Virus record (IMG/VR): IMGVR_UViG_3300022074_000004
Length of the DNA: 64,000 nt
From: a virus
Reading direction: 5' to 3' (one strand)
Shown: positions 55,248 through 56,894 of the stretch, piece after piece
Layout: every line of letters begins with the position of its first letter
Numbering within the stretch: the first letter of the stretch is position 1
The notes under the pieces: model-generated
Seen by the model: only the letters and a program-made list of their open reading frames with translations
Databases searched by the model: none
Told to the model about the DNA's origin: nothing
Translations under genes and position numbers: made by a program

Positions 55248-56261
55248 ATGGCTACGCTAACAAAACCGCTGGCAGCGGTTATGAATGTGCTCGCTCTTGT
55301 CGATGGCTTTATAAAGAAAGGCATTTCAGGAGTACGAAAGAAATTTTCTAGGGGCGACTTCCTTCCTGTTGAATGGGTAAAGGTCAAAGATTTAAAGGTT
55401 GATCCCAAGTATCAGCGATTGATCAACCTTGGGTTTATCAAGAAAGCGAAGGAGTTTGACCCCCTTCTTGTTAAACCTCTCTCGGTCTTCCAACGTCCTA
55501 ATGGCGACCTGATGGTTGTCGATGGACAACACACTACAGTCCTTGCAGCAACTTATGTTGAGGATGCAGAGAATTTTGAACTTCCCTGTCAAATTCAAGT
55601 TCATGATTCTGATTTTACCACCGAACAATGCGAAAAAGCAGAAGCTGCATACTTCAAGCGTTTCAACTCTTTGAGGAACACTGTAAGTGCAGTTGCAAAA
55701 CTGCGTTCTGATATTGCTCAAGGTGCTAAGTATGCTATCGCTCTTGAAGAGAGTTTCCAAAGTCTCAATGTTCATGTTGAGGGTATCGGTGCTCCCGATG
55801 ATGGCAGCAACGCCGTTCATGGTTATGACAAACTGAGAGTTTCCATCACTAAGTACAATAATAGTCTCACCAAGACTGCAATTGATCTGTACAAAGTTCA
55901 CAATGCAGCAGATGACAACAGCTGGAATTTACCTCTTAATGGTGGTATGATCCTTGGTCTTGCTGCAACTTACCACTTTGTTGATAACCATCTGGGAGAT
56001 GGTAAGAAGCGTGAAGGATTCCTTTACTATCTGAATGAACTTCTTCCCAATCTTACAGTTGCTGAGTACATTCTAAAAACTGCTGGTCCTCAAATGGATG
56101 TTTTGATCCTTCAAAACATTATCGAGAACTACAATATTCTGTGTAAGATGAAGATGCTTACCTATCCAGTTATCGGTATGGAAAAGTGGAAGACATGGAA
56201 AGAAGATCCTATCCATGGCACACCTAAGGATGTATCTAAGGATGAGGATTCTGATGACTGA
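55248..56261 (+). CDS. ParB/Srx-like N-terminal domain protein (YQR...DGQH)
   Basis: LKVDPKYQR..VVDGQHT..EAAYFKRFN; GGAGA SD; TTGACA at 55155-55160. Confidence 0.75.
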   Translation: MATLTKPLAAVMNVLALVDGFIKKGISGVRKKFSRGDFLPVEWVKVKDLKVDPKYQRLINLGFIKKAKEFDPLLVKPLSVFQRPNGDLMVVDGQHTTVLAATYVEDAENFELPCQIQVHDSDFTTEQCEKAEAAYFKRFNSLRNTVSAVAKLRSDIAQGAKYAIALEESFQSLNVHVEGIGAPDDGSNAVHGYDKLRVSITKYNNSLTKTAIDLYKVHNAADDNSWNLPLNGGMILGLAATYHFVDNHLGDGKKREGFLYYLNELLPNLTVAEYILKTAGPQMDVLILQNIIENYNILCKMKMLTYPVIGMEKWKTWKEDPIHGTPKDVSKDEDSDD

Positions 56262-56278
56262 TAACCGAATAAAAAGTT

Positions 56279-56303
56279 ACGGGGTTCATCACCCCGTTTT
56301 TTT
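56279..56303 (+). terminator. Intrinsic terminator before hsp20
   Basis: ACGGGGT-TCATC-ACCCCGT plus T-run. Confidence 0.88.
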
Positions 56304-56320
56304 ATGCTATAATATAAATA
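56285..56320 (+). promoter_or_regulatory. Overlapping sigma70-type and late promoters for hsp20
   Basis: TTCATC-17-TATAAT with TGn (56285-56313) and TATAAATA (56313-56320). Confidence 0.7.
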
Positions 56321-56324
56321 TTGA

Positions 56325-56381
56325 TGGTTGCCTTCGGGGACCACAAAACACAAACTCGCTTAACTAAGGAGCTATCAAATG
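56325..56381 (+). promoter_or_regulatory. ROSE-like RNA thermometer candidate in the hsp20 5' UTR
   Basis: cUUCGg hairpin, then UCGCU pairing with SD AAGGAG around a bulged G. Confidence 0.55.
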
Positions 56382-56813
56382 GGAGACCTAACGAGGTACA
56401 ATGCTGCCAACATGAATCAGCTGTTGGAACGTATAAATAGAAACAGTATTGGTATGGACGAGTACTTTGATCGTCTGTTTACACTGCACGAAACAACGAC
56501 AAATTATCCTCCATATAACCTAATTCAAGTTAGTGATACGGAATCACGGCTGGAATTAGCACTTGCTGGATTTAAAAAGGAACAAGTAAATGTCTACACG
56601 CAAGATGGAAAACTTTTCATTGAAGGACAACGAGAAGACGGAGAAACAGAAACCAAGTATGTCCATAGAGGAGTGGCTCAACGATCATTCACAAGATCTT
56701 GGACCATGGCAGAGGATACGGAAGTTAGATCAGTTGAATTTGAGGCGGGGCTTCTAAGTATTAAAATGGGAAGAGTCGTTCCAGAACATCATCTTCGTAA
56801 AGATTGGTTCTAA
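56379..56813 (+). CDS. hsp20: Small heat shock protein (Hsp20/IbpA-like)
   Basis: NYPPYNLI, LELALAGF, HRGVAQRSFTRSW, GLLSI. Confidence 0.95.
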   Translation: MGDLTRYNAANMNQLLERINRNSIGMDEYFDRLFTLHETTTNYPPYNLIQVSDTESRLELALAGFKKEQVNVYTQDGKLFIEGQREDGETETKYVHRGVAQRSFTRSWTMAEDTEVRSVEFEAGLLSIKMGRVVPEHHLRKDWF

Positions 56814-56842
56814 AATAAATAATATTGAATATCGTCGCCGCT

Positions 56843-56886
56843 GGGGGGCAACTGGCAAAATCCAGTTGACGCCCCCCTATTTTTTT
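56843..56886 (+). terminator. Long bulged terminator after hsp20
   Basis: GGGGGG CAACTGG-CAAAAT-CCAGTTG ACG CCCCCC TA T7. Confidence 0.85.
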
Positions 56887-56894
56887 GCTATACT
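56866..56894 (+). promoter_or_regulatory. Sigma70-type promoter embedded in the terminator, upstream of the gp43 operon
   Basis: TTGACG-17-TATACT with TGn. Confidence 0.75.

Follow-up and report, generated by a model that had tools for sequence, protein, structure and literature searches.

What controls the small heat-shock gene, hsp20, that T4-like cyanophages carry into their hosts? These phages rank with the sea's most abundant viruses, and we know of no account of the role of their hsp20 gene or of its control. The gene belongs to the 25-gene core of T4-like cyanophages (PMC3037559). The locus analysed here lies in a 64,000-nucleotide stretch of viral DNA (hereafter, the window; IMG/VR record IMGVR_UViG_3300022074_000004), in which the hsp20 leader had been predicted, from the letters of this single sequence, to fold into a ROSE-like RNA thermometer that hides the Shine–Dalgarno (SD) sequence at low temperature. 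The original prediction knew of no characterised cyanophage ROSE element, and the literature likewise yielded none: in full text, no paper was found that ties cyanophage hsp20 to an RNA thermometer, and in a 2024 review, phage RNA structures that respond to temperature are still a matter of speculation (PMC10884466). A conserved leader of the ROSE type would give viruses their first described RNA thermometer of this class. We conclude that a ROSE-like translational thermometer, related by descent to the ibpA leaders of proteobacteria, is the best explanation of the element and a reasonably probable one.

The hsp20 transcription unit and its leader

The window comes from an uncultured T4-like ocean cyanophage; among named phages, S-SM2 and S-SKS1 come closest, with 77–79% identical nucleotides across this region. 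The genes around hsp20 run as follows: D12 adenine methylase, DUF6551 gene, hsp20, DUF6561 gene, gp43 DNA polymerase. The hsp20 open reading frame (56379–56813, plus strand, as are the terminator, the −10 box and the leader parts described below) encodes an IbpA-like small heat-shock protein of 144 amino acids with a Pfam HSP20 domain; its best NCBIfam matches are IbpA and IbpB, and it shares 34% identity with E. coli IbpA. An intrinsic terminator of the DUF6551 gene (56279–56303; 7-bp stem with five G-C pairs, T run) sets hsp20 apart as its own transcription unit, an arrangement common to most homologous loci. An extended −10 promoter box, TGCTATAAT (56305–56313), can be read from the sequence, with no clear −35 element, and TGYTATAAWT-like boxes stand at an equal distance in hsp20 homologs. 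Together, the terminator and the extended −10 box place the presumed 5′ end of the hsp20 transcript near 56320–56322, which would give a leader of ~58 nt.

Two neighbouring features deserve mention. The next transcription unit (56820–56894) is built like that of hsp20, with a G-C-rich terminator hairpin and then directly a promoter (TTGACG, 17 nt, TATACT, with TG), and lacks a ROSE-like leader. A sub-threshold match to PrrB/RsmZ at 56187–56305 (26.6 bits versus a cut-off of 44, E = 0.0004) spans the GGA-rich 3′ end of the DUF6551 gene and the terminator, and is probably due to chance.

The leader folds into two hairpins joined by a spacer. A 5′ hairpin with a cUUCGg loop had been placed at 56325–56343; this stretch reads UGGUUGCCUUCGGGGACCA and does carry that loop (C56332 to G56337), with, in addition, a bulged G56330. 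Hairpin 1 as defined here (56326–56342) omits an optional U-A pair from that span: G56326–U56329 pair with G56339–C56342, and C56331–C56332 with G56337–G56338, leaving G56330 bulged and UUCG as the loop. The spacer that follows (56343–56354, ACAAAACACAAA) is, as foreseen, single-stranded and contains nothing but A and C; it might serve as a ribosome landing site. Hairpin 2 comprises the anti-SD CUCGCUU (56355–56361), which holds the ROSE motif UCGCU (56356–56360) and bulged G56358, the loop AACU (56362–56365) and the SD AAGGAG (56366–56371). Its predicted pairing is confirmed base for base (C56355-G56371, U56356-A56370, C56357-G56369, C56359-G56368, U56360-A56367 and U56361-A56366), and G56358 is unpaired in the sole register that pairs both flanks. 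The start codon, an ATG at 56379, is unpaired in the conserved fold. Both hairpins share a local module in which GG faces a pyrimidine, a bulged G and a C (YGC/GG; G56330 and G56358), as read from an alignment of 43 leaders. A covariance model of the element finds no further copy in the window (76 bits for the sole copy, 12 bits for the next best match).

In the mechanism that we propose, the hsp20 mRNA would begin with a short two-hairpin ROSE-like translational control element. Hairpin 1 would act as a heat-stable fold that sets the register, and hairpin 2 as a weak 6-bp helix in which UCGCU/AAGGAG pairing would bar the 30S subunit from the ribosome-binding site at low temperature; warming would open hairpin 2 and so give more Hsp20 without new transcription. 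From the structure we infer occlusion of the SD in vivo, a temperature response and a set-point below that of the enterobacterial elements.

Conservation and covariation among phage leaders

A scan of viral contigs gave 80 hsp20 loci with 75–95% protein identity and a strikingly conserved upstream leader. Two alignments were used: A1, with 43 distinct leaders aligned by MAFFT, and A4, with 53 distinct leaders aligned to the model. A BLAST search with the 67-nt leader matched at least 238 phage records, at one place per genome and always at hsp20. The covariance model, built from A1, recovers the element in the Prochlorococcus phages P-SSM2 and P-HM1 and in S-SSM7 at 39–42 bits. In P-HM1 (NC_015280), the annotated GTG start of hsp20 falls inside leader hairpin 1; this annotation is probably wrong, since an SD-preceded ATG lies 51 nt downstream. 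P-SSM2 also carries a manA RNA motif (RF01745, 181.6 bits), a known family, upstream of purL, two genes before hsp20.

In 53 of 53 leaders, hairpin 1 is fully paired (100% of cells), and five of its six pairs show compensatory changes; in A1, for example, one pair changes from G-C to A-U, and another occurs as A-U, U-A, C-G and U-G. The bulged G and both C-G pairs of this hairpin are invariant in the 43 close leaders, and the wider set of 53 contains a single compensated C-G to U-A change. Its loop is variable (UUCG, GAAA, GUAA, GAAC or GCAA). Hairpin 2 is paired in 98.4% of cells in the 43 leaders, the four exceptions being an alignment slip, and in 99% in the 53. None of 500 shuffles matches the observed pairing or covariation, and slid registers all reach at most 70%. 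Without a given structure, RNAalifold returns hairpin 1, bulge included, and, of hairpin 2, the lower half. An extension of hairpin 2 by flanking pairs was considered and rejected, as A1 columns 36/54 and 35/55 are not consistently paired.

The anti-SD is strongly conserved: pairwise, its identity amounts to 1.0 for 38 leaders and to 0.99 for 43. The same genomes give 0.63 for third codon positions, 0.66 for four-fold sites in invariant codons, 0.58 for the stretch from the SD to the AUG, 0.51 for the loop of hairpin 2 and 0.43 for the 5′ flank. Judged by these comparisons, the anti-SD is under purifying selection. Its sole variant, CUUGCUU, turns a C-G into a U-G pair and so keeps the pairing, and G56358 is bulged and invariant in 53 of 53 leaders. 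The loop of hairpin 2 changes in sequence and in length (3–5 nt) among homologs, with the stem register constant, and seven of the 12 spacer positions are invariant in the 43 leaders. Two-sided covariation was found at no pair of hairpin 2, because ribosome binding fixes the SD side; the case for this pairing therefore rests on complementarity and invariance. Loss of UCGCU/SD pairing in homologous leaders, which by its own terms would have refuted the original prediction, was not observed: the pairing is kept in 53 of 53.

These comparisons also bear on two other ways of reading the region. Chance complementarity in an unconstrained intergenic region would accord with the folding of the single sequence, in which the SD hairpin in its local context (−2.8 kcal/mol) has a z of only −1.16, that is, chance level on this sequence alone; conservation, covariation and specificity across hundreds of phages nevertheless refute it, and its probability is vanishingly small. 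A conserved upstream open reading frame (ATG at 56324, 37 codons) was likewise rejected: its ATG, frame and loop lengths are not conserved, and substitutions follow base pairs, not codons.

Six metagenomic cyanophage leaders have an additional hairpin of ~30 nt that follows the −10 box and precedes hairpin 1, ~100 to 65 nt upstream of the hsp20 ATG, in which, in most cases, an SD-like (A)GGAGG pairs with CC(C)UU; these six are three-hairpin variants of the element.

Given that hundreds of related phages keep the leader, temperature probably sets their chaperone output at the level of translation.

Membership in the ROSE-like kind

By the published definition (PMC3669281, PMC11342760), a ROSE-like element has two to four hairpins, the last of which holds the SD, imperfectly paired with a U(U/C)GCU anti-SD that leaves a predicted G bulged; most such elements precede small heat-shock genes. 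All sequence features of this definition are present and conserved in the phage leader, which supports the predicted assignment. The SD lies in the 3′-proximal of two hairpins in the 53 leaders; the anti-SD is imperfectly paired and contains UCGCU (56356–56360), with the UUGCU variant as the only exception; G56358 is bulged opposite the SD; and the element occupies the 5′ UTR (from ~56320, the deduced start, to 56378) of a small heat-shock gene of the ibpA/hspA type. A FourU reading does not apply, as the anti-SD is CUCGCUU and the Rfam scan gave no FourU match.

The Rfam ROSE models, put forward with the prediction as a check, gave a sub-threshold match only. ROSE_3 (RF02523), the sole thermoregulator model to align to the leader in the Rfam scan, does so over its full length and in the right place, but at 18.8 bits versus a cut-off of 43; two homologous leaders, likewise aligned along the whole model, score 22.6 and 27.2 bits, also below the threshold. 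ROSE (RF00435) and ROSE_2 (RF01832) gave no match on the window leader at E ≤ 10, and Rfam 15 has no family for the phage element. Two controls help to read these scores. The validated ibpA element of E. coli MG1655 reaches 100 bits on ROSE_2 and just 20.8 on ROSE_3, and none of 20 cellular gammaproteobacterial ibpA-like loci gave a ROSE match at E ≤ 1, while 19 of the 20 carry the motif. Both controls indicate that the Rfam ROSE models are lineage-specific, and a score below the cut-off is thus no argument against membership.

The motif itself, U(U/C)GCU shortly upstream of the SD, occurs at 24 of 26 cellular gammaproteobacterial loci versus 2.8% in shuffles, and two cellular genes have leaders that the phage covariance model matches, with 29 and 25.5 bits. 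This model also gives a 15-bit match in the ibpA–ibpB spacer of E. coli MG1655, where the hairpin GCUC-G-CC GUCA GG-GAGC shares the bulged-G module with the phage hairpins. On this comparative evidence, the leader is a real member of the ROSE-like kind, with a well-supported structure and homology, from which we infer thermosensing.

Predicted stability and accessibility of the SD

Nearest-neighbour energies omit non-canonical contacts known in ROSE stems, so that the figures given in this section are indicative only: at 37 °C, hairpin 1 is predicted at −6.1 kcal/mol versus −1.7 kcal/mol for hairpin 2 as an isolated stem, which agrees with the heat-stable upstream hairpin and labile SD hairpin of the ROSE-like kind. 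The bulged G is predicted to cost ~3.8 kcal/mol, hairpin 2 without G56358 coming to −5.5 instead of −1.7 kcal/mol. Isolated-motif folding at 37 °C puts hairpin 2 within −0.7 to −1.9 kcal/mol in 49 of the 53 leaders; the other four are three CUUGCUU variants and one more, whose isolated folds depart from the ROSE register. Neither loss of the bulge nor gain of a G-C pair beside the hairpin 2 loop was seen in any of the leaders, and this narrow energy range and the kept bulge fit selection for marginal stability.

For the whole leader, the RNAfold optimum is the two-hairpin fold at ≤20 °C and a long-range fold at ≥25 °C. The latter, in which UUGAUGGUU.CCUU pairs with AAGGAGCUAUCAA (−14.3 kcal/mol), also hides the SD; it was rejected as the functional fold because both of its arms vary freely among homologs. 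At 20 °C, the predicted unpaired probability of the hsp20 SD is 0.04, versus a median of 0.41 for the 40 SD-bearing open reading frames of the window, among which it ranks 6th; this places it, suggestively only, among the most occluded SDs of the window in the folding model. The predicted shift in SD accessibility from 10 to 45 °C is modest.

By these predictions, the core hairpin of E. coli is more stable than the phage SD hairpin by ~2.4 kcal/mol, and it needs 40–45 °C to come down to the energy that the phage hairpin has at 20–25 °C. Such a weak hairpin 2 would fit a set-point moved toward ocean temperatures; the same calculations would equally suit a weak brake, already open in part at ambient temperature, and hairpin 2 may, as modelled, be open to a large extent at ocean temperatures. 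If the thermometer reading is right, nature provides in the phage leaders a series of weak thermometers that may be tuned to low temperature.

A hairpin this weak is also what would be expected of a constitutive expression element that senses nothing, in which hairpin 1 would shield the mRNA 5′ end from RNases, the A/C spacer would be a ribosome landing or enhancer site and the weak SD hairpin would trim the rate of translation. Hairpin 1 lies a few bases from the predicted 5′ end and has hyperstable tetraloops, the spacer is A/C-rich with fixed bases, and hairpin 2 is predicted to be very weak, all of which such an element would accommodate. It leaves unexplained, however, the invariant ROSE anti-SD and bulged G over 53 leaders, the restriction of the leader to hsp20 among phage genes and the design that it has in common with cellular ibpA homologs, and we consider it improbable.

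Possible self-repression by Hsp20

The invariant bases in hairpin 1 and the spacer exceed the needs of a pure thermometer and speak against that reading in its simplest form. They draw attention to a second activity of the cellular system: E. coli IbpA represses its own translation by binding its folded 5′ UTR, for which Arg93 is irreplaceable and Tyr34, Arg97 and Lys98 are also needed (PMC10474464; bioRxiv 10.1101/2020.04.20.050740). By analogy, the phage leader might mainly be an operator for self-repression, at which free phage Hsp20 would bind its own folded 5′ UTR and block translation, leaving the RNA for aggregating proteins when these appear; output would then track the folding load during infection, not temperature. 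The phage protein is IbpA-like, and alignment with the E. coli protein, read against PMC10474464, equates R93, Y34 and R97 of IbpA with R102, Y43 and R106 of the phage protein, of which R102 and Y43 are conserved in distant relatives. IbpA repression requires the thermometer stem-loops (bioRxiv 10.1101/2020.04.20.050740), and the bulged-G YGC/GG module in both hairpins, together with seven fixed spacer bases, is needless for a hairpin that merely melts. Against this, the K98 position is S107 in the phage protein, and the C-terminus of phage Hsp20, PEHHLRKDWF (56772–56813 of the window), lacks an IXI motif, which IbpA needs to form the oligomers that repression requires (PMC10474464); more distant T4-like phage Hsp20 relatives keep a C-terminal IPI or IDI. 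Binding of the leader by phage Hsp20 is therefore putative, by analogy with IbpA, and we regard a leader that works mainly in this way as unlikely. Self-repression and thermosensing can coexist, however, and as a second layer of control, absent from the original prediction, self-repression is plausible and might matter just as much.

A combination of the two can be proposed tentatively: a sensor with two inputs, in which the bulged-G module would be an Hsp20 binding and shut-off site and hairpin 2 a weak thermometer set some 15–20 °C below the enterobacterial ones, in keeping with the temperatures of the ocean. Output would rise once Hsp20 is drawn onto unfolded or assembling proteins. Should this reading hold, phages would have brought a proteobacterial stress circuit, minus its sigma-32 promoter, into cyanobacterial cells. 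In either form, the leader would link sea temperature or protein-folding stress directly to phage gene expression, in a way that can be tested.

Depth in phages and origin of the gene

More distant hsp20 genes (28–45% protein identity) have the same leader architecture, usually in the UUGCU form. Contigs with such genes have been binned in metagenome-assembled genomes (MAGs) labelled Formosa, Acidibacter, Thermoplasmata, Psychromonas, Actinomycetota, Gammaproteobacteria, Porticoccaceae and Acidimicrobiaceae. Four MAG contigs were examined; gp43 polymerase lies beside hsp20 in all four, and gp41 helicase or cobS is present in three. Given these phage genes, the examined contigs belong to T4-like phages, not cells, and their assignment looks like binning contamination. 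The same architecture on distant T4-like contigs indicates that gene and leader travelled together through the marine T4-like phage lineage; the regulatory RNA has thus stayed with the chaperone gene across a phage lineage that extends beyond cyanophages.

A cellular source for the gene was sought and rejected: the first 120 homologs listed are all phage-like, and matches above 36% identity in genome collections lie on phage contigs binned into MAGs. In a tree of 40 proteins, the cyanophage Hsp20 group is strongly supported (99/96 to 100/97) and is nested in a broader cluster of phage proteins, separate from those gammaproteobacterial IbpAs that were sampled; support is weak for the deeper branches of this tree, and no donor can be named from it.

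Comparison with known RNA thermometers

A phage-encoded mRNA structure with temperature-dependent translation is known from the lambda cIII gene, whose RNA thermometer works as a switch between two alternative folds, with more activity at lower temperature. The hsp20 leader is unrelated to it in sequence, structure and gene.

In overall design the leader resembles the ibpA thermometer of Pseudomonas (ROSE_3, PMC3669281): both are leaders of ~60 nt with two hairpins before an ibpA-type gene. In both, hairpin I is rich in G-C and withstands heat, hairpin II is short and labile, and a single-stranded spacer lies between them; in hairpin II, U(U/C)GCU is imperfectly paired with the SD, the AUG being unpaired. 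The predicted energy pattern, stable hairpin 1 versus labile hairpin 2, is also alike. The phage hairpin 2 is weaker, however, with U-A pairs at its loop end instead of flanking G-C clamps, and the phage element, known here from sequence, is carried by a virus of marine cyanobacteria. The promoters differ as well: that of the phage is a sigma-70-like extended −10 box of the phage early type, not a sigma-32 promoter, whereas sigma-32 promoters are visible upstream of cellular ibpA-like homologs. With a sigma-70-like rather than a sigma-32 promoter, any heat response of the phage gene would therefore be purely translational.

The SD hairpin itself is closely matched by that of E. coli ibpA (ROSE_2), which has the same arrangement of 3 bp, bulged G, 3 bp and a 4-nt loop (CUCGCUG-AUUU-CAGGAG in E. 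coli versus CUCGCUU-AACU-AAGGAG in the phage), with CUCGCU and GGAGCUAU in common. The E. coli element differs in having three hairpins and two extra closing pairs.

A cyanobacterial setting is shared by avalong, the ROSE-like thermometer of an Anabaena small heat-shock gene (PMC4152365), which likewise has two hairpins with a ROSE-like anti-SD in the second. It differs in its bulged base, a U and not a G, and in its long hairpin 1, which carries an alternative anti-SD in the loop. Cyanobacterial hosts use other kinds of thermometer for their small heat-shock genes (PMC4152365), and the genes differ too: that of avalong is of the cyanobacterial type, whereas the phage gene is of the proteobacterial IbpA type.
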